A stretch of DNA of 64,000 nt from a virus, in IMG/VR virus record IMGVR_UViG_3300021085_002380. One strand, given 5' to 3'. Below are positions 1-44,456 of this stretch, piece after piece. How positions within the stretch are numbered: the stretch's first letter is position 1; every line of letters starts with the position of its first letter. A program made the position numbers and the translations under genes. Below the pieces are notes generated by a model, which was given only the letters and a program-made list of their open reading frames with translations, was not told the origin of the DNA and ran no database searches.

Positions 1-2862
1 ATAGTAGGTTATAAAGAGTTCGACTCTACTAAATACATTGATATTGAACCTACTATTGATGAAGCTAAAAAGAATGGCGGAACTGTAGTTATTGCATGGG
101 GTCGTATGAATCCTATGTCTGCAGGTCACGAAATGCTCGTTAAGAAAGTTATTGATGTGGCTAAGACCGAAAAAGGTACTCCGCAAATTTACTTATCACA
201 TACCCAAGGAGCAAAAACTAAAACCGGCAAAGGGGCGGTTAATAAAGATCCATTATCATATGATGATAAAATCAAATTTGCTCAAAAAGCTTTTGGTCCA
301 ATTGTTAAGAAATCTCCAGCAAAAACTATCATACAATTACTTAAACTCCTTGATAAGCAGTTTGATAGAGTTGTATTGGTAGCTGGATCTGATAGAGTCA
401 AAGAGTTTAACAATACACTAAATAAGTACAATGGAAAAGAATATAAATTCAGTGAACTTAAAATCGTATCAGCTGGCCAAAGAGATGCGGATGCCGATGA
501 TGTATCAGGAATCTCAGGTACTAAAATGCGTGGATACGCTAAGACAGACATGAAAAAATTTACTGCAAACTTACCGAAAAAATTAAAAGGTGACGCCAAG
601 GAAATTGCAGCGTTAGTAAATAAGGGCACTCAAATGACAGAAGAAAACGATGTAGAAATGGATGAAGCTCTGAATAGAGTTCAACGATTTAAAAAGGCCC
701 GCGCTATGAGAAAGGCTCGTGCTAAAATCAAACGTGGCCAAGAACGCGCTAAGCGTAAAAAGGCTGATATGAAAAAGATTAAACAAAGAGCGCAAAAGTC
801 TGCAAGGAATATGATTAAAGATAGACTTGCAAAACCTAAAAAGTATGCAAGCTTATCATATGCCGAAAAAGAACGTATTGATAAACGTATGGAAAAAATT
901 CCACCAGCAAGGATTGATAGACTTGCCCGTAAAATGATACCGATGGTTAAAAAGAAAGAACAGGAAAGACTTAAGTCTGCGCGGTCAAAATCAGAAGAAG
1001 TTGATCTCGACGAACAGTTTACAATGTTCATGGAAAAAATGACAAAGCCACAAGATAGTGACGTGGCAGATCGCCCAGGTTCTCAACCAAAAGGTTATTA
1101 TAAAGGTGTAGATAAAGATAAGAAAGATGCTCGCGCTGCTCATTTTGAAAAAGGTGCAAAGATGTCTGACGATAACCCTGCGGCATACAAACCAGCTCCT
1201 GGTGATAAAGAAGCAAAGACTAAAGAGTCGAAGTTTACTAAAAAAGCAAGAGCTATGGGATTTACAGAAGATTTAGTTTGGGAAGAATTAGTTGAAGGTC
1301 TCGACGAAGGTTTGTGGGGACAGCGAATTTCAAAAAGACCGCATATGCTATATGCTGCAAACGGAAAAGTAAAATTTGATAAACGCTTTAAAATGTATAG
1401 ACCAAAAGATGTTAAAGAGTCAAACGAGTTTGTCATTGAAGACATTGCAGAACTATACGAAGCGACCGAAGGTTATATGTCTGAAGATAAAGCTGGAAAA
1501 TCTTTAAAAGATAAAGCAGCGAAATCAGGTATGCCTGCCGGTATTTTACGTAAGGTTTATAACCGTGGCGTGGCGGCATGGCGTACAGGTCACCGCCCAG
1601 GTACAACTCCTGAGCAATGGGGACATGCTCGAGTAAATTCATTTATTACAAAATCATCAGGTACATGGGGTAAGGCAGATAAAGACCTTGCTGATAAAGT
1701 TCGCAAAGAAGGAATAGAAGAAATGAATGAAGCACCTCGTCGTAAAGGCGCGCCAAAAATGAAAGGTGACTCTGTTGCAATTCAACGTGCAAAAGACGCA
1801 GAACATGCAAAGGCAATGGGGCGTTCAGTAAAAACTGGCCGCAAGTTACCTAAGAAAACAATGACTTCAACTCAAAGATCATTAGCTTCATTACGTGGAG
1901 AAGATGTTCAAGAAGCTGCTACTCCTCAAATGAAACAGGCCGCGGCAAGTATTGAAGCATATGCAAAAAAACATGGTGGTATTGATAAAGCAGACTTTAT
2001 GAAAGCAGCAAAGATGCTATCATCTGGTAATGCTGGTACAAAATTCATTAAGTTCGTAGACGATCTTGATACAGATCCACGTGAATGGTTAATTACTAAT
2101 CTTGCTAAAACTATGGGTAAACAAACAGTTGAAAAAATGTTTAAAGTTAAAATCCGTGAAGAAGTAGAACAGCTTGATGAATTAACCGCGGCAGAAAAGA
2201 AACTTGTTAATCAAATGTATGATAAGAAAGGTAACCTTACTCCATTAGGCAAAAAGGTTATGAACCACGGTAAAAAGCCTGGTGATAAAGGTTACGTAGA
2301 ATCAAATCTTGATGAGCAAGCTATAGAGTTTTTAGAAAAGTATAAACCAGCAACACCTGAAGAAATCAAAAAGGATAAAGAACGTGAGCGTAAAGCAAGC
2401 GGCAAACAACGTCCTTCAATGAACGCTAAATCTGCCACAAAGAAAACATATGGTGGTATGATGGGTGGTCTTAAAGCTGGTTACGGTTATGGAGAAAGCT
2501 CAAAAAAATCTGTTGATACTAAACCAACTATTGACGAAGATGAAAAAGAAAACCTAGCTAAATATGCAGCAGCGGCAATTGCGCGTAAAAAAGAAGCGGG
2601 TGAAATGGATGATAAGCCAAAACCAAAATATAAAGACAAAGTCAAACGCAAAGAGGTTGATGAAGCGTGTGGAGCTGGTGAGCAAGGTACTAATGAGCTT
2701 ACTAAAAAATACAAAAAAGATACACCAATGGAAAGTATTCCACCTGAAGTTGTAGGGGCAGCATTAGCCGCTCCTATGGTCGCCCAAGGAGCAAAGGCTG
2801 CAGCTAAAGGCGCGTATAAAATGGCTAAAAAAATTGTGGCAAAAAAGAAAGCTAAAAAGTGA
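1..2862 (+). CDS. Large modular protein: N-terminal HxGH nucleotidyltransferase (cytidylyltransferase-like) domain followed by many basic modules separated by acidic linkers; 5'-truncated by the window
   Basis: Frame is open from base 1 (IVGYKEF...VVIAWGRMNPMSAGH). GRxNPxxxGH and LVAGSDRV...SAGQRD...ISGTKMR motifs match the T4-like phage cytidylyltransferase family; many (L/I/V/M)-x-E sites lie between modules. Confidence 0.75.
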   Translation: MVGYKEFDSTKYIDIEPTIDEAKKNGGTVVIAWGRMNPMSAGHEMLVKKVIDVAKTEKGTPQIYLSHTQGAKTKTGKGAVNKDPLSYDDKIKFAQKAFGPIVKKSPAKTIIQLLKLLDKQFDRVVLVAGSDRVKEFNNTLNKYNGKEYKFSELKIVSAGQRDADADDVSGISGTKMRGYAKTDMKKFTANLPKKLKGDAKEIAALVNKGTQMTEENDVEMDEALNRVQRFKKARAMRKARAKIKRGQERAKRKKADMKKIKQRAQKSARNMIKDRLAKPKKYASLSYAEKERIDKRMEKIPPARIDRLARKMIPMVKKKEQERLKSARSKSEEVDLDEQFTMFMEKMTKPQDSDVADRPGSQPKGYYKGVDKDKKDARAAHFEKGAKMSDDNPAAYKPAPGDKEAKTKESKFTKKARAMGFTEDLVWEELVEGLDEGLWGQRISKRPHMLYAANGKVKFDKRFKMYRPKDVKESNEFVIEDIAELYEATEGYMSEDKAGKSLKDKAAKSGMPAGILRKVYNRGVAAWRTGHRPGTTPEQWGHARVNSFITKSSGTWGKADKDLADKVRKEGIEEMNEAPRRKGAPKMKGDSVAIQRAKDAEHAKAMGRSVKTGRKLPKKTMTSTQRSLASLRGEDVQEAATPQMKQAAASIEAYAKKHGGIDKADFMKAAKMLSSGNAGTKFIKFVDDLDTDPREWLITNLAKTMGKQTVEKMFKVKIREEVEQLDELTAAEKKLVNQMYDKKGNLTPLGKKVMNHGKKPGDKGYVESNLDEQAIEFLEKYKPATPEEIKKDKERERKASGKQRPSMNAKSATKKTYGGMMGGLKAGYGYGESSKKSVDTKPTIDEDEKENLAKYAAAAIARKKEAGEMDDKPKPKYKDKVKRKEVDEACGAGEQGTNELTKKYKKDTPMESIPPEVVGAALAAPMVAQGAKAAAKGAYKMAKKIVAKKKAKK

Positions 2863-3428
2863 TATCTTTTAAACAATATATTTCAGAAGACTTTTCGTCT
2901 GATTTAAATGAAAGCGCATTGACCGCACTTAGAGTTGCAACTAAAGCCCATTCAGGGCAAACTCGCAAAAGTGGTGGTAAATACATTGAGCATCCAAAAG
3001 AAGTTGCTCGGTTCGTAAAGCAATTTAAAAAGTCAAATAATCTTTCGGCGTTAGTACAGGCAGCTTATTTGCATGATACTATTGAAGATACTGATACAAC
3101 TTATGCTGATTTGGTTAAACAGTTTGGTGCTCTTGTAGCTGATATGGTTCAAGAATTAACAACAGATAAAGCTGCATCTGATGCTATTGGTAAAGGTGAA
3201 TACATTGCTGGTAAGATGGCTAAAATGTCAAGTTGGTCATTAGTTATTAAACTTGCGGATAGATTAGCAAACGTACAAGACATTGATACCCGGCCTGCAG
3301 ATTTTCAAAAGAAATATGCTGCACAGACTGCGCTTGCTATTAAACGTCTTCGTAGTGATAGATATTTGAGTAAAACACATAATAAGATTATATCGGCAAT
3401 TGAGAAAAAGATTAAAGAGTATGTATAG
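2859..3428 (+). CDS. RelA/SpoT-type HD hydrolase (Mesh1-like small alarmone hydrolase) with N-terminal capsid-targeting-like peptide
   Basis: AHSGQTRKSGGKYIEHP..VA, AAYLHDTIEDT, FGALVADMVQELT and KLADRLAN motifs; no synthetase domain; starts MISFKQYISE (GTG start). Confidence 0.85.
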   Translation: MISFKQYISEDFSSDLNESALTALRVATKAHSGQTRKSGGKYIEHPKEVARFVKQFKKSNNLSALVQAAYLHDTIEDTDTTYADLVKQFGALVADMVQELTTDKAASDAIGKGEYIAGKMAKMSSWSLVIKLADRLANVQDIDTRPADFQKKYAAQTALAIKRLRSDRYLSKTHNKIISAIEKKIKEYV

Positions 3429-3714
3429 TTTTAAACAATATATATCAGAAGGTCTTAAGATCAAACTCATTAGAGGTAAGACCGAAGACGTATTAAAGAT
3501 ACAAGATTCTAAGGAAAAGTCTTGGGTTGAAGTGCGTGGCAAATCTAACTTTGAAACTAAGTTTGACCCAAAAGATCCTTTACACAAAGCAATTGCATCT
3601 TTACGTAAATCGGTTAATGTATCTGAACTCGTGAATGGAGAGCCTGTAGGCATTAATCCAAACCACCCACACGGCAAAAAAGCCCTGGCAGCAATAAAGA
3701 AGTTAATGAAATGA
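3421..3714 (+). CDS. Putative internal head protein (CTS-like N-terminus)
   Basis: ATG at 3421 gives MYSFKQYISE, nearly identical in DNA to the start of the preceding gene. Confidence 0.6.
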   Translation: MYSFKQYISEGLKIKLIRGKTEDVLKIQDSKEKSWVEVRGKSNFETKFDPKDPLHKAIASLRKSVNVSELVNGEPVGINPNHPHGKKALAAIKKLMK

Positions 3715-4031
3715 AAAACTTTAAATCTTTTTTAGAATCAAAAGACGAATACGATAATGAAGGTAGTATGGCAAAAGGCCAATTAAAAACCATGATTGAT
3801 GCAGCGCAACAATTGCATGATATGTTATCTGATGACGAAAACATGCCAGAGTGGGTACAAAGTAAAATCACTAAAGCTACAGATTATATTGACACTGCAA
3901 GAGATTATATGAAGTCTCAAGACGGTGATGAAGCTAGCCAACAAGAAGCGTGTTGGGATACTCATAAGCAAGTTGGTATGAAAAAGAAGGGCAATAAGAT
4001 GGTCCCTAATTGCGTTCCAAAGGAAACATAA
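3711..4031 (+). CDS. Putative internal head protein (CTS-like N-terminus)
   Basis: Starts MKNFKSFLE; contains an EGSMAKGQL...PEWVQSKITKA module and a C-terminal ACWDTHKQVGMKKKGNKMVPNCVP module. Confidence 0.65.
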   Translation: MKNFKSFLESKDEYDNEGSMAKGQLKTMIDAAQQLHDMLSDDENMPEWVQSKITKATDYIDTARDYMKSQDGDEASQQEACWDTHKQVGMKKKGNKMVPNCVPKET

Positions 4032-4033
4032 CA

Positions 4034-4261
4034 ATGAAAAGTTTTAAACAGTTTTGCGAAGGTTCAGAAACATGGGAAGCTGGTTATAAGCGCCGTGTTG
4101 TCAAAACTACTAAACCTGAGCATAAAGACGACGGAAAAAATTGGAGAATTAAAGGTAAAGATAGACCTGAGATTTCAATTAAACTATATAAAGAAAAGCC
4201 ATCACAGGCAGAATTTAATAAACAAATGCGCAGAGTCGCAGGTCACGAGTTTGGAGGATAA
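4034..4261 (+). CDS. Putative internal head protein (CTS-like N-terminus)
   Basis: ATG at 4034 follows an AGGA RBS and gives MKSFKQFCE; basic protein. Confidence 0.6.
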   Translation: MKSFKQFCEGSETWEAGYKRRVVKTTKPEHKDDGKNWRIKGKDRPEISIKLYKEKPSQAEFNKQMRRVAGHEFGG

Positions 4262-4264
4262 CTG

Positions 4265-4522
4265 ATGAATAAGGGACCAAAGACAGAACAACATTTAGCA
4301 GTTATTGCCGAATGGATGAAATCTGAAAATCGAGAACAAGTTACAATACATAGCAGCAGAAAACATGGTGCTATTAAATGGTTAGAATATCATCTTGAAG
4401 ATTACAGATGGAAATTTCAAAAATGGACTGATTTTCATGAACATTCCATATATTTCCAAACAGCTCGAGATGCAGCATTATTTAGAACAAGATTTTTAGA
4501 TAGTAAGGAAGACAGAGTATGA
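4265..4522 (+). CDS. Hypothetical protein
   Basis: GGAGG RBS; tightly packed ORF. Confidence 0.6.
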   Translation: MNKGPKTEQHLAVIAEWMKSENREQVTIHSSRKHGAIKWLEYHLEDYRWKFQKWTDFHEHSIYFQTARDAALFRTRFLDSKEDRV

Positions 4523-5049
4523 AAACCTTTGCAAAGCATAACTTACACGAAGGTATTGCGTATCATTTAGAAAACGACATTCCGTTAGCAGAGTGTGTAT
4601 ATAGACCACACAGCAAATCGTTTTACGAATTTTTTATTGAAGCGCGTAAGTTATTCAAAGAAGGAATCATAAACCCATCTAATTATTTCGATAGAGACCT
4701 ATTAGAAACAGATATAGGTGAACACGATATTTACGAAGAACGGCGAGTTCCACTTGACATTCCCATGATGGAGGATGAAAAGGACGTTGAGCTCAACAAG
4801 CCACAAAGAGGTGGTCCCAAAAAGTTCTATGTGTATGTGAAAGATGGGGATAAAGTCAAAAAAGTAACCTTCGGGGATACGTCCGGTTTGGCCGTAAACT
4901 TTGATGATAAAGAGGCACGCAAGTCTTTCGCAGCTCGCCACCAATGTCATTTAAAAAACGATAAGACTAAAGCTGGGTATTGGTCTTGCCGTTTACCTCG
5001 ATATGCAAATGAATTAGGATTAAAAAATGGAGGTTCGTTCTTTTGGTAA
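4519..5049 (+). CDS. Putative internal head protein with conserved T4-like basic module
   Basis: Starts MKTFAKHNLHE; C-terminal KKFYVYVK..KVKKVTFGD...RKSFAARHQC...AGYWSCR module. Confidence 0.65.
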   Translation: MKTFAKHNLHEGIAYHLENDIPLAECVYRPHSKSFYEFFIEARKLFKEGIINPSNYFDRDLLETDIGEHDIYEERRVPLDIPMMEDEKDVELNKPQRGGPKKFYVYVKDGDKVKKVTFGDTSGLAVNFDDKEARKSFAARHQCHLKNDKTKAGYWSCRLPRYANELGLKNGGSFFW

Positions 5050-5318
5050 AACCATATTATGATGAACATTTGACAGATAACCAATGGATACGAATATTTA
5101 ACCCTTATAACACAACCGCTGATGATTATGTTTGGCATAGGGATAAAAACGATAGAGTATTTACAGTATTAGATGGCGATGGTTGGAAAATACAATTTGA
5201 TGATGAACTGCCTACTGTTATAAATAAACGTGATACGATAGAAATACCTAAAATGGTTTATCACAGGATAATACCTGGAAAAAGCAAATTAAGGATAATA
5301 ATAAATGAAGACGTTTAA
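5043..5318 (+). CDS. Small cupin-like protein
   Basis: WHRD...IEIPKMVYHRI cupin-type pattern. Confidence 0.55.
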   Translation: MVKPYYDEHLTDNQWIRIFNPYNTTADDYVWHRDKNDRVFTVLDGDGWKIQFDDELPTVINKRDTIEIPKMVYHRIIPGKSKLRIIINEDV

Positions 5319-5682
5319 ATCACATATGACTGAGCATGAAATGCAGCTTGCGCTCGTGTGGGAACACATGCATGAAGAAAATATCAACCCCGATGATTTA
5401 ACCGAAGAAGAGTTAAATGAAATCATTGGTAAGGTGATTGGTGGAGCAGCAAAGCTCGCAGCCAAAGGTATACGCCGAGGTCTTGTTAATAAACAAGGTA
5501 ATCTTAGAGTTTCTCGTGCTGGACGTAACGACGCAAGACAAGCAAAAATTGATAATATTGAAAGAAAGAAAAAAGAATTGAAACGAGCCACAGATACTCG
5601 TAAAAAGCTTCAGACTGCTAGAGCCGGTTTAAGAACTGCTCGCAAAGATTTTAGAAAAGCTAGACAACAAACTAACCCTTAA
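5305..5682 (+). CDS. Putative internal head protein (CTS-like N-terminus), basic helical C-terminus
   Basis: Starts MKTFKSHMTE; LNE/IIG junction followed by an Arg/Lys-rich tail. Confidence 0.6.
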   Translation: MKTFKSHMTEHEMQLALVWEHMHEENINPDDLTEEELNEIIGKVIGGAAKLAAKGIRRGLVNKQGNLRVSRAGRNDARQAKIDNIERKKKELKRATDTRKKLQTARAGLRTARKDFRKARQQTNP

Positions 5683-5703
5683 TTAATAATAGAGGAATAA
5701 AAA

Positions 5704-5913
5704 ATGGATTTTGCATCATCATTTAAATCAAAGATCTTAGAAACTTTAGAAGATCTCGAAGAAAAGAAAATGGATCCGGTTGGACAAGCCGACGATGATA
5801 TTGATAACGACGGAGACGTTGACGATTCAGACGAGTATCTTCACAAACGCCGCAAAGCTATCAAAAAGGCTATGAAAGAAGAACAAGAAGCTCGCTTATC
5901 AGAAGATAAATAA
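5704..5913 (+). CDS. Small protein with DxDNDGDVD (EF-hand-like) module
   Basis: GAGGA RBS; MDPVGQADDDIDNDGDVDDSDEYLHKRRKAI. Confidence 0.6.
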   Translation: MDFASSFKSKILETLEDLEEKKMDPVGQADDDIDNDGDVDDSDEYLHKRRKAIKKAMKEEQEARLSEDK

Positions 5914-5945: not shown

Positions 5946-6248
5946 ATGGCACTTTGGGGAAAAACAGATGCATTGGCTTCCGTACCAAAATGGTTGGAAG
6001 ATGCTGCGTCAAACACAAACAAATCAAACGATAGAGATAACGCAATCTTTGTTGACCTTACAGAGGCTGGAATTGCATCTAACCGTGCAAAAGGCATTAC
6101 TGGTCCAGGCTGGTGGTTATACCATACAGATGGCGGACGTCACCACGCTGAATGTCTAGTACCAATGAAAGTAACCGCGGTTGCTGCTGGTGACTTGGGT
6201 GTAACAGGCGACACCGCTGTTGAAGATGCTATCGTAGCTGACTCATAA
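5946..6248 (+). CDS. Putative virion structural protein (MALWG-type, marine T4-like phages)
   Basis: AGGAG RBS; MALWG N-terminus and IFVDxxEA...GITGPGWW motif. Confidence 0.5.
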   Translation: MALWGKTDALASVPKWLEDAASNTNKSNDRDNAIFVDLTEAGIASNRAKGITGPGWWLYHTDGGRHHAECLVPMKVTAVAAGDLGVTGDTAVEDAIVADS

Positions 6249-6266: not shown

Positions 6267-6641
6267 ATGAAATTGACAGAATCAACCTTTCTGTTATTTG
6301 CATCTAAATATTACGACAATCCTCAATGTTCCGACGTATCAGAATTTGAGGAAGACCTGAAAAGGTTTCAATATTTACGCAAATTATTTGGAAGATACAG
6401 ACAAGATAATGAATTAAAAGAAAGGTTGATTCTGAACCACTTGATAATTATCTATAATATGTTTGGGCCAGAAGCGACACATATGTTATTCATGAAACTT
6501 GAAGAATACCATGAATACATTAAGCCGTTTGTTGAATACTTAAACTATATGCCTATAGAAATAATGTATGAAGATCGTATAATAGGTAAAGAAAATATTA
6601 TAGCTGATCCAGTTATAGAAGAAAAACTTAAAGGAATATGA
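6267..6641 (+). CDS. Conserved T4-like hypothetical protein
   Basis: YDNPQC...EFEEDLKRFQYLRKLF...LKERLILNHLIIIYNMFG pattern. Confidence 0.65.
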   Translation: MKLTESTFLLFASKYYDNPQCSDVSEFEEDLKRFQYLRKLFGRYRQDNELKERLILNHLIIIYNMFGPEATHMLFMKLEEYHEYIKPFVEYLNYMPIEIMYEDRIIGKENIIADPVIEEKLKGI

Positions 6642-6645
6642 TCTT

Positions 6646-7575
6646 ATGATCGTTGATCTATTTTTAGTATACCAATTTATCCGCAGGCTCGCAACTCCTT
6701 TTAATAAATGGGAAGCGTTTAAGCTTGGTGTTATTGATAAAGACGGTAAAGTACTAATCAAATCAAAAGATTTTACTAAAGCTGCTCAGCGTAAATCATG
6801 GGGAGTTTTTGATAGAATGGTAGCCAACCTTAAAAAGTTGTTAGCTAAAGTTCCTGGCGGTAGTTCTCGATTTGCATCATACGCTGCTGCGTTATTTCTC
6901 ATTAAAGAATATAAACATTTTACTGATGAAACTACTCTTACAGAAGAATTAACTGATAAACAATTAGATGAATCAATACAATTATTTTATAGTAGATATA
7001 CTCATTATACCACACTTGCAGAAGATGTCAATAGTTTAAACGAAAAGGCTGAACTTTTTTTAGAAAAGCTAAAAGCATCTGATGATATGGGCGATTGGAT
7101 TGACGACTTTTACAAATCAGACGCACCACAGTTTAAAGGCAAGTCAAAAGAAAAACGCCGTAAAATGGCAATTGCTGCTAAGCTTGCAGTTGACGAGTCA
7201 TTAGAAGAAGCCGCTGTTCCACGTTGGAAACGAGCAGGTACTGATGGCGAAATAGAAGCTACTATCGGTGGTAAAAAATACAAAATAGAAAAAGCTTTAG
7301 ATAGTAACGAACGCCATAAAGGCGAATGGAAAGTTATGGTTTGGGATAAACGTGACTGGGAGTGGGAGACAACCGAATATGGCAAAGCAAACGCTAAAGC
7401 TTGGATCATGGATAGGTTAAAAGAAGATACACCGGTTAATAACGTTGGTGATGGAAATATTGCAGGAATGGATGGAACTGCAATGTCAAAAGCAGCTCAA
7501 AAGAAATGGACATCCAAGAATAAAACTAAAAAGCGTAAAACACTGAGAAATATTATTAATGGAGAAACCTTATGA
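6646..7575 (+). CDS. Conserved T4-like protein with appended protease-site-delimited modules
   Basis: N-terminal DLFLVYQFIRRLATPFNKWEAFKLGVIDKDG domain, then FLE/KLKASDDMGDWIDDF.., LEE/AAVPRW.. and LKE/DTPVNNVG modules. Confidence 0.6.
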   Translation: MIVDLFLVYQFIRRLATPFNKWEAFKLGVIDKDGKVLIKSKDFTKAAQRKSWGVFDRMVANLKKLLAKVPGGSSRFASYAAALFLIKEYKHFTDETTLTEELTDKQLDESIQLFYSRYTHYTTLAEDVNSLNEKAELFLEKLKASDDMGDWIDDFYKSDAPQFKGKSKEKRRKMAIAAKLAVDESLEEAAVPRWKRAGTDGEIEATIGGKKYKIEKALDSNERHKGEWKVMVWDKRDWEWETTEYGKANAKAWIMDRLKEDTPVNNVGDGNIAGMDGTAMSKAAQKKWTSKNKTKKRKTLRNIINGETL

Positions 7576-8429
7576 TTACATTAGAACAATTTAGCGCAAT
7601 GATCCCAAAAAATAAGGACGCTGAGTCTTGGTACGATGCCGCGGTTCCTATGTTTGAAAAATACGAAATTAATACAACAAACCGGTTAGCCGGTTTCATG
7701 GCTCAATGCGCGCATGAGTCTTTAGACTTTACAAGACTTGAAGAAAACCTTAACTATTCAGAAAAAGCGTTAAACGGAGTGTTTGGTCGTTATTTCGGAA
7801 AGGGTAAAAGAAATGCTAAAGAATACGCTCGCAAACCTGAAAAAATTGCAAACTATGTTTATCAAGATGAATACCGCAGCAAACGAGGCGCTATGGGCAA
7901 CACCACTGCCGGTGATGGGTGGAGATTTAGGGGCCGTGGCATTAAGCAACTTACAGGTAGAAACAATTATACAGCGTTTGGAAAGTCAGTCGGAATGTCA
8001 GCGGAAGAAGCAGCAGACTACGTTGCAACCGAACGAGGAGCTTTAGAGTCAGCCTGCTGGTTCTGGGCAACAAATAAACTTGACAAGTGGGCTGATAAAG
8101 GCGACATTAAAGGATTGACAAAAAAGATAAATGGTGGTACAATTGGTTTAGAAGATCGTACACGTCGTTGGGAAGAAGCATTAGCTATTCTTGGTGGTAA
8201 AGTACCCGCGCCAAAAGCAGCAAAGAAATCTGCACCAGCAAAATCTCGTACTTTACGCAAAGGTATGAAAGGTGACGATGTCGCTAAAATGCAAAAAGCT
8301 TTAGGTATTACAGCGGACGGAGACTTTGGTTTCGGAACGCAAACATCAGTTAAAAAATGGCAAAAACTTAACGGTTTAGTGGCAGACGGCATTGTAGGCC
8401 CAGCAACACAAGCCAAAATGTTTAAATAA
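7572..8429 (+). CDS. Endolysin: GH19 chitinase-like domain plus C-terminal peptidoglycan-binding domain
   Basis: FMAQCAHES, EENLNYS, GDGWRFRGRGIKQLTGRNNY and INGGTIGLEDR; PG_binding_1-like LRKGMKGDDV..ADGIVGPAT. Confidence 0.9.
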   Translation: MITLEQFSAMIPKNKDAESWYDAAVPMFEKYEINTTNRLAGFMAQCAHESLDFTRLEENLNYSEKALNGVFGRYFGKGKRNAKEYARKPEKIANYVYQDEYRSKRGAMGNTTAGDGWRFRGRGIKQLTGRNNYTAFGKSVGMSAEEAADYVATERGALESACWFWATNKLDKWADKGDIKGLTKKINGGTIGLEDRTRRWEEALAILGGKVPAPKAAKKSAPAKSRTLRKGMKGDDVAKMQKALGITADGDFGFGTQTSVKKWQKLNGLVADGIVGPATQAKMFK

Positions 8430-8435
8430 TAAATA
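8428..8435 (+). promoter_or_regulatory. T4-type late promoter variant (AATAAATA)
   Basis: One mismatch to TATAAATA, about 30 nt upstream of the 8466 ATG. Confidence 0.5.
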
Positions 8436-8465
8436 ATACACAGTTAACATAACAAGGAGAACAAC

Positions 8466-8690
8466 ATGTCTTTAGAAAAGATTGTCCAGGAAGCCGTCGA
8501 GGCACGTCCACTTGGTTTGAAAGAAGCGTTTGAAGCAGAAATGGAAAAACGTATTTTAGCAGCCCTCGAAGAAAAAGCAACAGCTAGCATGATGGAAGCA
8601 GCTGCTGATGAAGACGAGGACGAAGATGACGAAGATCAAGACGACGACGAAGATGACGAAGATGAAGATGAGGACAAAGAAGAGGACTAA
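8466..8690 (+). CDS. gp67: Prohead core protein, gp67-like
   Basis: 74 aa with a helical N-terminus and a long Asp/Glu tail, the architecture of T4 gp67; AGGAG RBS. Confidence 0.55.
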   Translation: MSLEKIVQEAVEARPLGLKEAFEAEMEKRILAALEEKATASMMEAAADEDEDEDDEDQDDDEDDEDEDEDKEED

Positions 8691-8692
8691 GA

Positions 8693-9142
8693 TTGGCTAG
8701 ACTCTATCTTATAATCATTATACTAAGTATTTTAGGTGGTGGTGGTTTCGCGGCAAAATCGTACTTTGATTGGTCGCAGGAAACTATCACCACTTTACGT
8801 ACTAATAATGTGAAACTTCAGGACGCTGCGGAAACTCTGCAAAACACTGTTGACCAAATGGTTGCGGATGCAGCACGAAACGAAGAATTGAATAATAACC
8901 TAACTAAGCAATTACAACAATCTCAAGCACATCTTGACAAATTGCGCGGCGTATTTGCTAGAATAGATTTGACTATGGAAGCGCTCACTGACGCGCAAAA
9001 TTTGGAGGAAAGGGTAAACAATGCAGTTGCAGAACTTATTGGAAAAATTGCCGATGAAACTGATCCTAATCCTAGTACCGCTGACGATGCTGACAGCGTG
9101 CCTGGGCAGGACGCCGGAACCGACGGTAGTAACGCAGACTGA
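8693..9142 (+). CDS. i-spanin (Rz-like)
   Basis: N-terminal TM segment then coiled coil; downstream of the endolysin and overlapped by a lipoprotein ORF. Confidence 0.7.
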   Translation: MARLYLIIIILSILGGGGFAAKSYFDWSQETITTLRTNNVKLQDAAETLQNTVDQMVADAARNEELNNNLTKQLQQSQAHLDKLRGVFARIDLTMEALTDAQNLEERVNNAVAELIGKIADETDPNPSTADDADSVPGQDAGTDGSNAD

Positions 9143-30469: not shown

Positions 30470-30643
30470 ATGGCTAAAAGTTTTAAAGAGTTCCGCGAAG
30501 ATTGGGAACACGACGAATGGGGTCACAACGAAGAACGGAGCGTACGCAGTAAGGAAAAGCGTATGAAAAACCGTCGTGATAAAAAGAAACTGAAACGGCA
30601 AGAAAGAAATTCCCATCTTGATACTGAAGAACAAAAAAGGTAA
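30470..30643 (+). CDS. Small basic protein with CTS-like start (57 aa, not in ORF track)
   Basis: AGGA RBS; MAKSFKEFREDW...KRMKNRRDKKKLKR. Confidence 0.55.
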   Translation: MAKSFKEFREDWEHDEWGHNEERSVRSKEKRMKNRRDKKKLKRQERNSHLDTEEQKR

Positions 30644-38616: not shown

Positions 38617-39924
38617 TTAGAACAAGTTAGATACAGTCACACGACGGTAGTAAACGTTAGAGTCTACAGTCAATGCGCCGTTTCCTTGTGAAGCACCAGC
38701 TGAGAACGGGTTAGAGACCATGCCGTAGCGAGTCTTAAATCCGATTTTTGGCTGGAAGCTGTTTTCACCAACTGCGCGAACCATCTGCAATGGTACGTAT
38801 GGGCAATAGAAGATACCAGCATCAAAAGATGAAGAACCTTTATAACCTACAACCATGTAGTTAGCTCCGGCATATGGATCGATGTATACTCTGTAACGAC
38901 CGTTCAGAACACCGGCGAATGTATTGCCTGTATCGTCTACGTCGAGGGCGTTGCTGTTCAACGCTGGAGTATAATCAAGAACACCTGCCATTTGCAATGC
39001 GGATGCAACATCGGAGGAACAGATAACCATGTTACCTTTACCACGACGTGTACCTTTTGCAATTGCGTTTGCTTCTTGTTCGATTTGGAACATCAGGCCT
39101 TTGAATTTCTCAACTGACCAACGACCATTTGCATCAACGTCCAGATCAAAAGTACCTGGTGTTGCTGTACCGGCTGCGCCGAGTACCGCGTTTGTGTAAA
39201 TGGTACGAACCAATTCGCGGTTGATTTCAACCAAGATTTCTGATTGCAGAATGTTTGCCAATTCTGTTTCAGCATCCAAACCGTGTACGGCTTTAAGATC
39301 CTGAGCAAGCTCAGCAGTGTATTCGGCTTTCAGCTGACGAGATTTCGCTGTTACGGAAACTTTCTCGATTGAGAATGCCATCTCAGCAAAGTTAGCATCT
39401 GATTCAGCATCGGCTGTTGCCATGCCTGTACCAGTTGTAGTAACTGTTGAGTTAGCAGAACCCAATGCTTGTGCATGAGTACCTGTACCAGAGAAGTCTG
39501 TATCGGCTTCGTTATAGAATACTTCGTTAGCCGCAGCTTGCGTAGTATGTGTTGAACGCATTGCGAAGATCAAGCCTGTTGGGCCAGTCATCGGCTGAAC
39601 ACCAGCGATGTCATATGCGATCAAGTTTGGCATTGCACGACGTACCAATGAAATTAGGATTGGGTCGTAACCTGCAGTTGGACCGGTTGCAGTTGAGTCT
39701 GCGCCGAAGCCACCTGTGCCTGCGTCGTTTACATGAGTTGCTTCAGACAAAAGCGATGTCATGTTTGCACTAAGATCACCTTCAGATACTAGAGCTTTTT
39801 GAGTATTCTCTAGAACAGTTGCAGTGACCGATTTACGGTGCTGATCTTTAATGTTTGTAAAAGAGTCGTGCTCCAGAACTGGGCCCCACTTTTCTACAAG
39901 CGCTTGATAGTTTGACTGAGTCAT
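38617..39924 (-). CDS. gp23: Major capsid protein
   Basis: LISLVRRAMPNLIAYDIAGVQPMTGPTGLIFAMR, KAEYT.ELAQDLKAVHGLDAE and FQPKIGFKTRYG. Confidence 0.98.
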   Translation of the reverse strand: MTQSNYQALVEKWGPVLEHDSFTNIKDQHRKSVTATVLENTQKALVSEGDLSANMTSLLSEATHVNDAGTGGFGADSTATGPTAGYDPILISLVRRAMPNLIAYDIAGVQPMTGPTGLIFAMRSTHTTQAAANEVFYNEADTDFSGTGTHAQALGSANSTVTTTGTGMATADAESDANFAEMAFSIEKVSVTAKSRQLKAEYTAELAQDLKAVHGLDAETELANILQSEILVEINRELVRTIYTNAVLGAAGTATPGTFDLDVDANGRWSVEKFKGLMFQIEQEANAIAKGTRRGKGNMVICSSDVASALQMAGVLDYTPALNSNALDVDDTGNTFAGVLNGRYRVYIDPYAGANYMVVGYKGSSSFDAGIFYCPYVPLQMVRAVGENSFQPKIGFKTRYGMVSNPFSAGASQGNGALTVDSNVYYRRVTVSNLF

Positions 39925-39989: not shown

Positions 39990-40970
39990 TTATTTCTTCG
40001 CAAAAGCTGCGAGAAGAGCATTGATTGACGGATCTTCAGAAGCTGGTTTAGCAACAACTGTTTCCTCAGTCAAGATTTCTTCTTCGTCGTCTTGAGCTTC
40101 CTCTGCAACAACCGGTTTGGTATCTGCAAAGAATGATTCTTTAAGAGTATTTAGATTAGCTGTATACTCATCAACGTTTTCGAAGTCAAGCTTTTCGGAA
40201 AGTACTTTCAGACGCTCGGCTTGAGTCAGCGTAAGTCCTTCAGTCATTTCGTTAAAAACTTTCTCTGCCTTAAGGCCCGAGATTTCTTTTGCAAGCGCGA
40301 GATTTTCATCGATGCGTTTGTTTGCGTCGTCGGTCATTACTTCAACTTTCTCTTCAAGTCCTGCAACCACATCAACAACTTCGTCGTCTACTGTAATGTT
40401 GTGCTCAGTGAAAAGATCCTTAAGGCCGTCCATTAACGATTCTGCCATATCAACCTTGATACCGGATTCGATGGCAAGTTCGTTTTCTTTCATCCACTCT
40501 TCTACAACGTAGTCGAGATATGAATCAAGATTCTCAATAATAGTGCTTACAGTTGAGTCGACTGATTCTTGCATTTCTGCGTCAACTTTAGCTGCATATT
40601 CTTCTGTCATAGCTTCAGCTTTTTTCGTGGCCGATTCATTAACAGCTGCTTCAAAAACTAGAGTAACTTTATTTGTGAACTCTTCAGAAAGGTCCATGCC
40701 TTCAAACATTTTTGCAATTGATTCGTCGATAGAAATTACTTCTTCTTCAACGATTTCAACAGCATCAGCATCGGCCGCTTCTTCTTCGTTCATTCCTGGT
40801 GTTGGTGTGTCAAGTTTGCCAGCTTTTGGATCAGCCGCCTTTTTGACATCTGCTTTTTTCTTTTTAGTTGCGCCGCCGGCTGGTGCTGCTGGATCTTCTA
40901 CTGAAGATGCAGGAACAGTCGAACCGCCGTCGTCAACAGTGAACTTTTCGTCTAGGTCATGTTCTGACAT
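39990..40970 (-). CDS. gp22: Prohead core scaffold protein
   Basis: LSEEF..K...FEAAV and LDSYLDYVVEEWMKENELAIESG; canonical position. Confidence 0.93.
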   Translation of the reverse strand: MSEHDLDEKFTVDDGGSTVPASSVEDPAAPAGGATKKKKADVKKAADPKAGKLDTPTPGMNEEEAADADAVEIVEEEVISIDESIAKMFEGMDLSEEFTNKVTLVFEAAVNESATKKAEAMTEEYAAKVDAEMQESVDSTVSTIIENLDSYLDYVVEEWMKENELAIESGIKVDMAESLMDGLKDLFTEHNITVDDEVVDVVAGLEEKVEVMTDDANKRIDENLALAKEISGLKAEKVFNEMTEGLTLTQAERLKVLSEKLDFENVDEYTANLNTLKESFFADTKPVVAEEAQDDEEEILTEETVVAKPASEDPSINALLAAFAKK

Positions 40971-41027: not shown

Positions 41028-41726
41028 TTATTTTCTCAGCGATGATAGGAACTTTTCAAACATTCTACCTGCCAAATTTTCATCAATTTGACGAACAGTA
41101 CGTTTATAAGCTACCTTTACTTCTTTTTGGATTTCTTCAATTACTTCTTCAACCTCGGCTTGAGCTGCTGCTGGCAACCAAGAATTAGAAGCAATATCAT
41201 AGTAGTATTCGACGTTTTCCATTACGCCGTTTACAAAACAATTAGGACCAGAAGGATCTGTTACAATATCAACAGTCGACAAATGGAAATCGTTTTGTAC
41301 TTCCATGATGCCTTCTTTAGTTGGTTTAACAGAACCAAGGCCGCGTGTCGAAACTCCAAAAAGCACGCCTTCGTCCATAAATGTTTTAACAATCTCACCC
41401 ATTGGCGTACTAAGAATTTTAGCTTTACCAATAAAGTTTGATCCGTCTCTTTTCATTTCGGTGATAAGGTGTGATACTCTATCTCCGTTAATGGTTGGTC
41501 CTTCAGGATGTCCTAATTCGCCTAGAGCACGTTTCGTATCAATAAAATCTTTCTGATAACGAACCATTTCTTTTTCAAGAACTGCAGAAGGATATATTCT
41601 ACCATTACGATTTTTAAGGTCGCCTTGCATAAAAATGCCTTCAATGAAGTGTGACTTTTTACCAGTCTCTTCATTGATTTCTGTGGTTAAACTAACCTCT
41701 TCTACTACTTCAGTAATCAGTTTCAT
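41028..41726 (-). CDS. gp21: Prohead protease
   Basis: IEGIFMQ...NRNGRIYP, ALGELGHP, GVSTRGLGS and DIVTDPS. Confidence 0.96.
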   Translation of the reverse strand: MKLITEVVEEVSLTTEINEETGKKSHFIEGIFMQGDLKNRNGRIYPSAVLEKEMVRYQKDFIDTKRALGELGHPEGPTINGDRVSHLITEMKRDGSNFIGKAKILSTPMGEIVKTFMDEGVLFGVSTRGLGSVKPTKEGIMEVQNDFHLSTVDIVTDPSGPNCFVNGVMENVEYYYDIASNSWLPAAAQAEVEEVIEEIQKEVKVAYKRTVRQIDENLAGRMFEKFLSSLRK

Positions 41727-41767: not shown

Positions 41768-42013
41768 CTAAGGTATACCATTAGCATTTTTATTGTCATA
41801 AAAGTTTTTATTCAATTCGCCTCGTATAATTGTTTCGCCTGCTTTCCTACATTTGATATACGTATATTGCGCATTACCACCTGGAGGAGTGTAGGCACGA
41901 ACGCCTGCTGTGACGGTCCCGTTAGCATCATTATATGTGTCGGAGTCCGCAGCCGTGGCAGCATTATCATACTCCCAAATACTATTTGAGCCTAGGACCG
42001 TCACAAAAGCCAT
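41768..42013 (-). CDS. Hypothetical virion-associated protein
   Basis: TAATG overlap with the upstream gene; within the head operon. Confidence 0.55.
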   Translation of the reverse strand: MAFVTVLGSNSIWEYDNAATAADSDTYNDANGTVTAGVRAYTPPGGNAQYTYIKCRKAGETIIRGELNKNFYDNKNANGIP

Positions 42014-42894
42014 TACATGGCTTCCCTCGCAAATCCAACGATTTCGTTAAATCCGCTTTTATCTGTCATCATAACTTTTTCCATTTGTTTACGGTTTTGA
42101 CTATTCAATCCTTTAAACATTTGGTTCAAAAGTTTTGCATCTTCTTTTGTAACCTTCATTGAAGATCCATCTTTTAATTTCATATTGCCTACTTTAACTG
42201 CTTCGTCAATATGTTCTTTCTTTTCCCAAGGAGCTTTTTTCAACGATACGGCTTCTTTACCTTTTTTCGTTGTTGCGGCAGTCTTGGCTAATTTTTTCAT
42301 TAGATCGGCTTTTTTGTTTTCAGCCATCTTTTCTTGACCGTGGTCATCAACTTTAACGTCTTTTGCTCTTTTCAATACAGTACGAACTTTACCGTCCGGT
42401 CCTGTAATGTTCATAGGCTTTTTTATTGCTGACTGAGTAACCTCGTTAACGGATTCTTTCCTGTGAGCATCTTTATATAAACCTACGGCTTGAGCAATAT
42501 TTTTATTTTTCATCATGCGCTTTGATTCGCCGGCATCTGGATTATCCATTATCATACGAACTGTAGGCTCATCTACGTTATTCTTTTTGACAAATTTCTT
42601 ATATGCATCAAACTTTTTAGGAATAACAGATCCACCAAATTTATTTCTCATTGGTGTCATACTACGAGAAATCTCATCAATTTGCTCTGAATTTTCTGTA
42701 GTATATGCTTTGTCGTAATTAGCGTCGCCTTCTTGGTCAGCTTTACGTTTTGCCTTTGGCTTCTCAGCTTTATGCTGAGTTGGCTCTGCTACTGGATGAG
42801 GTTTAACCTCAGCATTGTGCAGATCTTTGAACTTCTTTTCCTCTGAGGATTTTGGTTCTGCTACTTCAGCCATATGATTTTTAAAGGACTTCAT
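42013..42894 (-). CDS. Putative prohead core/internal protein with CTS-like start, in the gp67/gp68 position
   Basis: Starts MKSFKNHMAE; internal IDE/I, VNE/V, MAE/N and IDE/A junctions; AATAAATA at 42926-42933. Confidence 0.65.
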   Translation of the reverse strand: MKSFKNHMAEVAEPKSSEEKKFKDLHNAEVKPHPVAEPTQHKAEKPKAKRKADQEGDANYDKAYTTENSEQIDEISRSMTPMRNKFGGSVIPKKFDAYKKFVKKNNVDEPTVRMIMDNPDAGESKRMMKNKNIAQAVGLYKDAHRKESVNEVTQSAIKKPMNITGPDGKVRTVLKRAKDVKVDDHGQEKMAENKKADLMKKLAKTAATTKKGKEAVSLKKAPWEKKEHIDEAVKVGNMKLKDGSSMKVTKEDAKLLNQMFKGLNSQNRKQMEKVMMTDKSGFNEIVGFAREAM

Positions 42895-42932: not shown

Positions 42933-44456
42933 TTAATTCTGCTGTTCTTGGTCATTCGGATCGCCAAATTCTTCTTTTTCAGCTTCCATTTGCGTTTTCA
43001 TTTCCTCGGAGTCGTCTTCACTCAACTGAAGGATATTACGAATAACCCATTCTCTTGAATAATATACTCCGACGTGATCTTCGACGTCACGCAGTGTTGC
43101 CATTCTTTCACGGAGTATTTCTGCTTCTTTTAATTCGTTAAAATAGTTATCTTGCATAAAGTCATAACGAATTGCATTTCTAATTTCTTTAAATTCTTCA
43201 GGTGTCATAATACCTTTAAGAACAACTTGCTTCTCTAAAATTGTTGTAAAGATTGAAGAAAATCTAGATCTTACACGGCGAATAAATTTACTAAACTTTA
43301 GCTCGTCACGAGTAATTTCAGAAGTACGACCAAAGGTTGCCATTGTTTCAGGCTCAAGCCTTGTTAGCGGAACCTTTAACGCTTTAAACAATTTACGCTG
43401 AAAGTATTGCATATTTTCATCAGACGATAGCGCTTGTGAAGAACCACCAACTAATGTATCAACTTCAGTGGATCTTTCACCACCTCGGCGTGGAAACCAA
43501 AAGTCTTCAGTCATAGTCATCATTTTACGGCTATCAGTAATATCGCCGGTTGATGAATTATACTGTAACTTGTTTTTATGGCGAACCATCATATCTCTTA
43601 TATATTGTTCAGCTTTCGACTTAGGTAAGTTCCCAACGTCAATATAAAAAATTCGTCTTTCAGGAGCTCTTGTAAGAGTATAAATAACTGTTGCATCTTC
43701 AAGCATCCTTAATTGATTTAAAGGTTTAATAGCGGGGTGCAAATATGAAAGAACCAAAGAATTGTTTTCGTTCATTAATCCTGAAGTAACACGGGCAACA
43801 GAGTCTTTGGAAATTCTATATCCCTGTGTACCAGTACTTTGGTTGCCACCTGCATTGTCACCAGTAAAACCATTTTCTGAATACATATAATATTCACTTT
43901 TTAGTTTTTTAACTGGGATGCCAGAATGCGGATCTTTTTGTCTTTTATCAACTTCACGTATAAGTTTTAACTTACGCGGATCTACATATCGTAGTTCTCT
44001 GATACCGTCTTTTATGTTTTCGTTGTCAATAATGACATGATAATTTAATCTGCCATCAACGTAAAACTTTTGAAAAATATCGTAAGCTGCATTTGAAAAA
44101 TCTAATAACGATAATACGTTATCAAACTCTTCGCTCAATCTCTTTTTGACTTTGTCAGGAAGATTAGTATCATCGAGCACTAGCTCAACAACTTTATCGT
44201 CAGTTCCTATAGAAATTGCTTCGTTAATAACTTCGTCTACAGCTGATACAATTTCAGGCTGTAGAGCCATGCCACGGTATTTTGTAACTAATTCAGACTC
44301 AGTCTTTGCTGTGCCTTCCATATCGAGAAGAGTCCCGTAGAATCCGCCTTGGGCGTTTCCTACAGTGATTGCGCCGTCTTCATTAGACGGTTCAGCGAAT
44401 GAGACTACTGGAGTCTCATCCTCTTCTCTTTTGATTTCGTAACCGAATATCTTCAA
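42933..44456 (-). CDS. gp20: Portal protein
   Basis: YVDGRL, LRYVDPRK, RAPERRIFYIDVGNLPK and EDFWFPRR. Confidence 0.97.
   Translation of the reverse strand: MKIFGYEIKREEDETPVVSFAEPSNEDGAITVGNAQGGFYGTLLDMEGTAKTESELVTKYRGMALQPEIVSAVDEVINEAISIGTDDKVVELVLDDTNLPDKVKKRLSEEFDNVLSLLDFSNAAYDIFQKFYVDGRLNYHVIIDNENIKDGIRELRYVDPRKLKLIREVDKRQKDPHSGIPVKKLKSEYYMYSENGFTGDNAGGNQSTGTQGYRISKDSVARVTSGLMNENNSLVLSYLHPAIKPLNQLRMLEDATVIYTLTRAPERRIFYIDVGNLPKSKAEQYIRDMMVRHKNKLQYNSSTGDITDSRKMMTMTEDFWFPRRGGERSTEVDTLVGGSSQALSSDENMQYFQRKLFKALKVPLTRLEPETMATFGRTSEITRDELKFSKFIRRVRSRFSSIFTTILEKQVVLKGIMTPEEFKEIRNAIRYDFMQDNYFNELKEAEILRERMATLRDVEDHVGVYYSREWVIRNILQLSEDDSEEMKTQMEAEKEEFGDPNDQEQQN

Follow-up and report, generated by a model that had tools for sequence, protein, structure and literature searches.

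A T4-type candidate capsid-targeting peptide shared by a variable gene cassette of a marine T4-like phage

Introduction

Why should a row of genes whose products are otherwise unrelated begin with nearly the same short peptide? The question is posed by a cassette at positions 2859-5913 of a stretch of 64,000 nucleotides from IMG/VR virus record IMGVR_UViG_3300021085_002380 (the window), which is a piece of a marine T4-like myovirus genome with a G+C content of about 38%. A preliminary description of the window had likened the peptide to the capsid-targeting sequence (CTS) of the internal proteins (IPs) of phage T4 and regarded the cassette as a set of effectors loaded into the head for delivery at infection. 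The T4 CTS is a textbook mechanism and a tool of biotechnology; to our knowledge, it has been described so far for T-even coliphages only. The comparisons presented below make it quite likely that the shared decapeptide is a CTS of the T4 type and that the cassette delivers internal proteins via the head; the phage probably injects a variable kit of proteins along with its DNA. Within the literature searched, a T4 CTS system has not previously been described in this marine lineage, the principle being known from T4, and the case is set apart by the near-identity of the peptide to that of T4 and by its link to cultured phages with proteome data.

The shared N-terminal peptide

The cassette forms an operon whose genes are closely coupled through overlapping stops and starts, and it is located 3' of a large gene encoding a cytidyltransferase-like domain and DUF5824 (Table 1). 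All nine starts to which the preliminary description had ascribed the peptide (hereafter the tag) exist and are plausible gene starts, with a ribosome-binding site (RBS) or an overlapping stop and start. Seven of them are strong members, comprising six open reading frames (ORFs) within 2859-5682 (starts 2859, 3421, 3711, 4034, 4519, and 5305) and one on the minus strand at 42894, and share the pattern M-x-[STN]-F-[KA]-x-[FYH]-(1-3 residues)-E. The last cassette member listed, 5704, is doubtful: it receives no score from the profile described below, and its putative P1 Glu is an Asp in two relatives, L009 (a 98% relative) and L138. The Asp-rich module of this protein bears canonical tags in relatives. 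The motif had also been said to recur outside the cassette, which holds for 42894(-) and is doubtful for 30470.

A regular expression derived from the motif matches just the listed sites among 1,488 candidate starts, which is a circular test. An independent hidden Markov model (HMM) was therefore trained solely on the relatives L014-L080, whose anchor-gene protein (the product of 6267-6641) is at most 81% identical to that of the window; a gapped HMM was used since a fixed-length position-specific scoring matrix under-scores tags of 9 and 11 residues. Six of the seven strong ORFs are scored at 14-25 bits (3421, 2859, 4034, 42894(-), 5305, and 3711, in descending order), and the window contains eight starts of at least 12 bits, i.e., these six ORFs and two alternative starts upstream, the value from 20 shuffles being 0.00. 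The low score of the seventh, 4519 (8.3 bits), is due to one extra residue in its tag, and canonical tags are found in its close homologues.

In principle the similarity might lie in the nucleotides, the peptide itself having no role: the shared sequence could serve translation initiation or coupling, or be a linker that recombination leaves when cassettes are shuffled. The identity of 23 nucleotides noted earlier between the first two tags (2859 and 3421) is real, the genes are tightly coupled, and tag-like relics occur at module junctions, as at residues 471-479 of ORF18 of the Methylophilales phage Melnitz. Nevertheless, in 69 distinct N-terminal DNAs the peptide pattern holds while synonymous codons vary freely: Ser3 is encoded by AGY in 29 cases and by TCN in nine, and Arg by both of its codon families; the residue itself varies at position 7 (Tyr, His, or Phe) and at position 8 (Ile, Met, Leu, or Val). 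Such variation under a constant amino acid pattern indicates that selection acts on the peptide and not on the DNA. Moreover, the region 5' of the tagged starts contains just a generic purine-rich RBS, the same peptide pattern is found in T4, whose DNA is unrelated, and two ORFs of the same coupled operon, 4265 and 5043, are untagged, so that membership of the operon does not by itself entail the peptide. A purely nucleotide-level origin is thus very improbable.

Relation to the T4 capsid-targeting sequence

When the HMM trained on marine sequences was applied to T4, the four best of 3,030 candidate starts were those of gp61.1, at the top, followed by ipI (13.5 bits) and by ipII and ipIII (11.1 bits each). 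A profile of the kind suggested in the preliminary description, scanned over the window and its relatives, thus recovers the tags and also retrieves the T4 internal proteins. Residues 4 and 7 of the CTS are the main determinants of targeting in T4 IPIII, and residues 8 and 10 those of its processing (PMC9026906). The conserved positions of the marine tag, F4, [FYH]7, [ILMV]8, and E10, coincide with these determinants. All seven strong members in the window have F4, together with F, Y, or H at position 7. An alignment of the 97-aa family (3421) shows no variation at F4, Y7, and E10, in contrast to positions 2, 3, 5, 8, and 9.

The tags end in ISE, ISE, FLE, FCE, LHE, MTE, and MAE, which at the sequence level is the pattern of a site with a hydrophobic P3 residue and Glu at P1. 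The same holds for the major capsid protein of the phage: the site aligned to FLTE65 before A66 of T4 gp23 reads LLSE before A, resembling the tag ends YISE, HMTE, and HMAE. Homologues of gp20, gp21, gp22, and gp23 are all encoded in the window according to PHROG searches, and portal, prohead protease, scaffold, and major capsid protein follow one another on the minus strand in the T4 order (E-values from 8e-71 to 1e-183). The prohead protease is 38% identical to T4 gp21 (1e-29). None of the computational comparisons that might have set the tag apart from the T4 CTS did so. The proposal that the tag resembles the CTS of the T4 internal proteins is supported by the presence of the head-gene homologues, the matching determinants, the retrieval of the T4 proteins by the profile, and the similar end of the capsid protein propeptide.

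The 293-aa tagged protein at 42894(-) occupies the position of T4 gp67/gp68, between the portal and prohead protease genes. An Atlas feature search with this protein was uninformative.

The tag in related phages

The relatives examined were 80 IMG/VR loci, for which the DUF7207 gene (6267-6641) served as anchor. They contain 250 ORFs of at least 12 bits, of which 248 lie on the same strand as the anchor gene and no more than 8 kb upstream of it; the remaining two are located just past 8 kb, and none is found downstream or on the opposite strand. There are two to nine tagged ORFs per locus, representing about 39 cargo families whose mature parts have no mutual relationship and differ from one related phage to another; among them are the HD hydrolase, DUF6267, DUF5824, and a Zeta-toxin/AAA_33-type kinase. 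In a complete relative of 221 kb, G002, the late cargo block and the head module between them contain all eight strong matches.

A tagged ORF is present between the portal and protease genes in 52 of the 67 loci with enough flanking sequence, and also in the cultured Sinorhizobium phage phiM12, where a genome scan found this head-module ORF (ORF070) as the sole match. Its product has a conserved VAQPK..EEKAFKDQH segment following the Glu of the tag. The presence of this ORF in most relatives ties the tag to the head-assembly module.

The tag appears to be portable. The alignment of the window hydrolase (ORF 2859) with MESH1 begins at residue 21, past the tag, and the DUF6267 protein of phage P-HM2 starts where the tagged version in locus L075 resumes after the tag. 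In Melnitz, ORF18 (L234:3415-5367) is a tagged 650-aa fusion of the cytidyltransferase, DUF5824, the Cys module of 3711, and the 4519 domain, the latter C-terminal and 65% identical to its counterpart in the window. Within residues 466-480 of this protein an internal Met is followed by the tag-like IVSFKEHLD, which stands before the C-terminal modules, i.e., a Cys-rich segment and then the 4519-like domain; this internal stretch may be a gene-fusion relic, an internal start, or a polyprotein linker.

It is also worth mentioning that the tagged cargo of relatives includes an ADP-ribosyltransferase-like protein, a Zeta-toxin/AAA_33-type P-loop kinase, and a DUF6267 protein (L023:8065-8970, L058:5244-5912, and L075:354-1592). 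The first, possibly an analogue of Alt, resembles ADP-ribosyltransferases weakly: it is below the Pfam threshold, has no sequence match in the PDB, and is a lead at most.

Tagged proteins and virion proteomes

The cyanophage S-SCSM1 shares the gene block, and its ORF91 begins with MKSFLQFLKE. The product of ORF91 was found by mass spectrometry in CsCl-purified virions, and enzymes similar to it were found in the virion proteomes of two other cyanophages, with no loading mechanism offered by the authors (PMC9602691). S-SCSM1 has two strong HMM matches, of which one is in the virion proteome, too few for a statistical test. The other, ORF30, is the best match in the genome and adjoins virion-protein genes on both sides.

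It could be argued that the peptide directs the proteins to a chaperone, a host factor, or a different part of the virion, or that it is a pro-peptide, removed by the protease, that holds enzymes inactive. Packaging in the window phage is inferred, ORF30 went undetected in S-SCSM1 virions, and similar N-termini are found on small proteins of the replication module (30470 in the window and gp61.1 in T4). On the other hand, the profile retrieves exactly those T4 proteins for which capsid targeting has been demonstrated, the conserved positions are the T4 targeting and processing determinants, a tagged gene is placed between the portal and prohead protease genes in most relatives, and a tagged enzyme is present in S-SCSM1 virions. 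The peptide is also hydrophilic and amphipathic, unlike a secretion signal. A different address or a pro-peptide function is therefore judged improbable.

The cargo

The first tagged protein of the cassette is the one for which an activity can be predicted. ORF 2859, which starts with GTG overlapping the stop of the upstream gene, encodes a 189-aa protein with a Pfam HD_4 domain (6.3e-16, 58.9 bits against a cut-off of 27.2) and no synthetase domain. Its best solved relatives are MESH1 and the hydrolase domains of Rel proteins (human MESH1/HDDC3, 3nr1, 2.3e-15), and in the alignment with 3nr1 the catalytic motifs (His...His-Pro, His-Asp, Glu-Asp, and Asp...Asn) are intact as AHSGQ..EHP, LHDTIEDT, and KLADRLAN. 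By these sequence criteria it is a single-domain small alarmone hydrolase of the Mesh1/SpoT type. Small alarmone hydrolases of phages have neutralised every toxSAS toxin tested, and it has been proposed that phages use them against alarmone-based abortive infection (PMC7229694). On entry, the window enzyme would plausibly degrade (p)ppGpp or (p)ppApp or reverse the products of toxSAS-mediated abortive infection and, being pre-packaged, would act ahead of phage transcription. Among the cargo of the window, an anti-defence role is plausible for this predicted hydrolase only.

For the cargo other than the HD hydrolase, domain, PHROG, and fold searches gave no recognisable activity or known family. 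In the AlphaFold2 model of the 97-aa protein (3421; pLDDT 76) the tag is a separate helix at residues 4-10, and the model has no match in the PDB. The 176-aa protein (4519) belongs to a family very common in marine phages, with 4,195 homologues, of which the close ones start with MKSFKQH..NLHE; its AlphaFold2 model (pLDDT 78.7) has no fold match in the PDB, and an Atlas fold search gave just weak similarity to DUF5824/nucleotidyltransferase proteins. The 4034 protein recurs in many relatives, and the mature 5305 protein has an isoelectric point (pI) of 10.5. The two untagged genes of the cassette, 4265-4522 and 5043-5318, may have a role in the producing cell instead of the virion.

The 3711 protein has a C-terminal Cys-x-Cys module common to other cargo (matches to phrog_9737 and phrog_727). 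Short Cys modules of the window (3930-4031) and of the cargo of relatives (ACW..YKQVGMKKKG..VPNCVP and THCSDKCCG..C.C) recur in many tagged proteins, and the same modules occur in the large nucleotidyltransferase proteins, which points to extensive module shuffling.

The gene heading the operon (1-2862), of which about 11 codons fall upstream of the window, encodes a protein 36% identical to S-SCSM1 ORF91. In L009 this protein begins with an 11-residue Lys-rich leader followed by IVGYKEFDSTKYIDIEPTIDE before A, resembling the 19-residue CTS of T4 IPI, and in Melnitz and S-SCSM1 its homologues are tagged from residue 1 (MKKFSEIIE and MKSFLQFLKE, respectively).

The tagged proteins, though packaged, could be mostly structural or DNA-condensing core and internal proteins or of assembly helpers, and not of injected anti-defence effectors. 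The mature products are basic in six of nine cases (pI 9.4-10.5), as are the T4 IPs, several are small and of low complexity, and the T4 IPs that contact DNA are alike (PMC3012670); furthermore, the head-module protein is Lys-rich and conserved, and the HD enzyme is the sole cargo of the window with a recognisable activity. The rapid turnover of cargo between relatives, with about 39 families at two to nine per locus, would nevertheless be unusual for structural parts. Enzymes are also present among the cargo, namely the hydrolase here and the Zeta-like kinase, DUF6267, and the weak ADP-ribosyltransferase-like protein in relatives, and phage alarmone hydrolases do neutralise toxSAS toxins in assays (PMC7229694). 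A mainly structural cargo is considered rather unlikely.

Gene neighbourhood

The features of the window are collected in Table 1. A T4-type late-promoter-like box, TATAAATA, lies within the cassette and is found at the homologous place in L138; the same box stands 5' of the gp21, gp22, and gp23 homologues of the window. It also stands 5' of the gene heading the operon in L009, where it is followed by an RBS ahead of the ATG (start L009:1410), and in L138; these are motif matches alone, the operon start lying outside the window.

The major capsid protein is 68% identical to those of the Sinorhizobium phages phiN3 and phiM12, 63-65% to those of the Pelagibacter phage HTVC008M and of Melnitz, and 45% to T4 gp23. 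A DNA search of cultured phages turned up no close relative of the window; near-identical genes are present on metagenomic contigs of about 211 kb.

Downstream of the cassette, at 7572-9142, there is a lysis module with an endolysin (GH19-like and PG_binding_1 domains) and an Rz-like spanin. The region upstream of the window in close relatives (L138:1893-4633) encodes two sulfotransferases and two glycosyltransferases, flanked by a DUF6267 gene and the large nucleotidyltransferase gene within the same late block; these enzymes may modify virions or DNA.

The 30470 protein, located in the replication module, has an orthologue in G002 with synteny kept and resembles T4 gp61.1 (BLASTP 3e-05; T4 NC_000866 18966-19130). 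The two may be packaged proteins that have gone unrecognised, or else the motif may not be fully specific or may have a second use.

Table 1. Location of the tagged genes and of other features of the window
Feature	Position	Strand	Evidence or remark
3' part of operon-heading gene (cytidyltransferase-like domain and DUF5824)	1-2862	+	phrog_3041 6e-84; Pfam DUF5824 1.8e-15
Tagged candidate cargo 1: predicted small alarmone hydrolase, tag MISFKQYISE (residues 1-10)	2859-3428	+	HMM 24.5 bits
Tagged candidate cargo 2: 97 aa, basic, tag MYSFKQYISE	3421-3714	+	HMM 24.7 bits
Tagged candidate cargo 3: 106 aa, acidic, tag MKNFKSFLE	3711-4031	+	HMM 14.1 bits
Tagged candidate cargo 4: 75 aa, basic, tag MKSFKQFCE	4034-4261	+	HMM 22.7 bits
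Untagged ORF inside cassette, 85 aa	4265-4522	+	No motif; internal negative control
Tagged candidate cargo 5: 176 aa, 11-residue tag MKTFAKHNLHE	4519-5049	+	
Untagged ORF inside cassette, 91 aa, weakly cupin-like	5043-5318	+	Melnitz homologue untagged too
T4-type late-promoter-like box TATAAATA	5219-5226	+	About 80 nt 5' of start 5305
Tagged candidate cargo 6: 125 aa, very basic helical C-terminus, tag MKTFKSHMTE	5305-5682	+	HMM 19.5 bits
Doubtful cargo 7: 69 aa, acidic, Asp-rich module, degenerate tag	5704-5913	+	HMM gives no score
'Head protein' homologue flanking cassette	5946-6248	+	phrog_613 7.7e-16
Conserved anchor gene (DUF7207/phrog_407)	6267-6641	+	
Doubtful member: 57-aa charged protein, replication module, N-terminus MAKSFKEFRE	30470-30643	+	HMM 7.5 bits
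Major capsid protein (gp23 homologue), predicted maturation site LLSE61 before A	38617-39924	-	phrog_138 1e-159
Scaffold (gp22 homologue)	39990-40970	-	phrog_237 1.5e-73
Prohead protease (gp21 homologue), presumed tag-removing enzyme	41028-41726	-	phrog_207 8.4e-71
Tagged Lys-rich 293-aa protein, tag MKSFKNHMAE	42013-42894	-	HMM 20.9 bits
Portal (gp20 homologue)	42933-44456	-	phrog_213 1.2e-182

A model of cargo loading and its significance

In the model proposed here, the tagged proteins would be made late in infection and bound, through the aromatic residues 4 and 7 of the tag, to the scaffolding core that underlies assembly of the prohead shell, the gp22 homologue being by analogy the main component of that core. 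The gp21-type prohead protease would then cut after the Glu at about position 10, with a hydrophobic residue at P3, and the mature proteins would remain in the head with the DNA until they are ejected into the cell at the next infection. The cassette at 2859-5913 would accordingly represent the hypervariable internal-protein locus of a marine T4-like lineage, and the tagged Lys-rich protein encoded beside the protease gene would be a conserved core or internal protein of that lineage.

Several observations weigh against this model. S-SCSM1 ORF30 was undetected in the virion proteome (PMC9602691), and for the close relatives, as for the window phage, packaging and cleavage of the tagged proteins are inferred. 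The first gene of the operon has no canonical N-terminal tag in the window phage, members 5704 and 30470 fit the profile poorly, and the folds of two cargo proteins (176 aa and 97 aa) matched nothing solved. As the 30470 and gp61.1 genes lie among replication genes, a similar N-terminus can occur on proteins that are not known from virions. Finally, genome scans of HTVC008M and P-HM2 gave no significant tag matches; the tag is missing from, or not recognisable in, these two phages and hence not shared by all of the wider group.

A more far-reaching proposal, put forward tentatively and with less than an even chance of being correct, is that the T4 CTS has been kept nearly unchanged in a marine branch of the T4 group, where it marks a large set of fast-evolving enzymes injected against alarmone/toxSAS and other abortive-infection defences. 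The set would comprise the alarmone hydrolase, the nucleotidyltransferase, DUF6267, the Zeta-like kinase, and the ADP-ribosyltransferase-like protein, all acting before phage gene expression. If this is true, the tag is a sequence key to the sets of injected proteins in ocean viromes and explains why non-structural enzymes recur in cyanophage virion proteomes.

Essentially the same peptide as that of T4 marks the cargo in abundant marine T4-like phages, and it would provide a simple sequence rule for predicting which phage proteins travel inside the capsid. It is also a candidate loading mechanism for the virion-associated nucleotidyltransferases of cyanophages. The predicted alarmone hydrolase, if packaged, would be a candidate "first-minute" counter-defence. 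The cargo families concerned are very common in ocean metagenomes, one of them having more than 4,000 homologues.

Comparison with known systems

The closest parallel is the CTS of T4 itself. Both peptides are N-terminal, comprise 9-11 residues (19 in IPI), start with M-K-[ST]-[FY], and have an aromatic fourth and seventh residue, a hydrophobic eighth, and Glu as the tenth, and both phages have a gp21-type protease and a gp22 scaffold. T4 has three IPs, whereas the window phage has at least seven tagged genes and its relatives up to nine. Unlike in T4, position 7 is often His, recognisable enzymes occur among the candidate cargo, and a tagged gene has a conserved place in the head module.

The cassette also resembles the hypervariable internal-protein locus of T-even phages which, in the account of Repoila et al. 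(1994) given in PMC3012670 and PMC9026906, likewise shifts its gene content between close relatives, with the targeting peptide alone being conserved. The marine cassette is larger and belongs to a distant branch, as the 45% identity of the capsid proteins indicates, and its modules are also found fused in the nucleotidyltransferase protein. In the giant phages phiKZ, 201phi2-1, and SPN3US a related prohead protease cuts after Glu and cleaves many head-internal proteins (PMC5694885), and the window phage similarly encodes many candidate internal proteins with putative protease sites. The giant-phage propeptides differ in being mostly long (more than 100 residues), with no short portable decapeptide (PMC5694885).

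Among marine phages, the NMNAT/cytidyltransferase-like virion proteins of the cyanomyoviruses S-SCSM1 and S-CBWM1 (PMC9602691) are homologues of the product of the first gene in the window and are encoded in the same block, where the 'head protein' and DUF7207 genes are their neighbours; the tag is present in the S-SCSM1 protein, whereas the window homologue lacks it in its canonical N-terminal form. As regards the predicted hydrolase, its nearest functional counterparts are the enzymes of the Salmonella phages PVP-SE1 and SSU5 (PMC7229694), which are also phage-encoded, stand-alone HD enzymes of the Mesh1/SpoT type. Those are expressed after entry, whereas the window enzyme, being tagged, would arrive ready-made.

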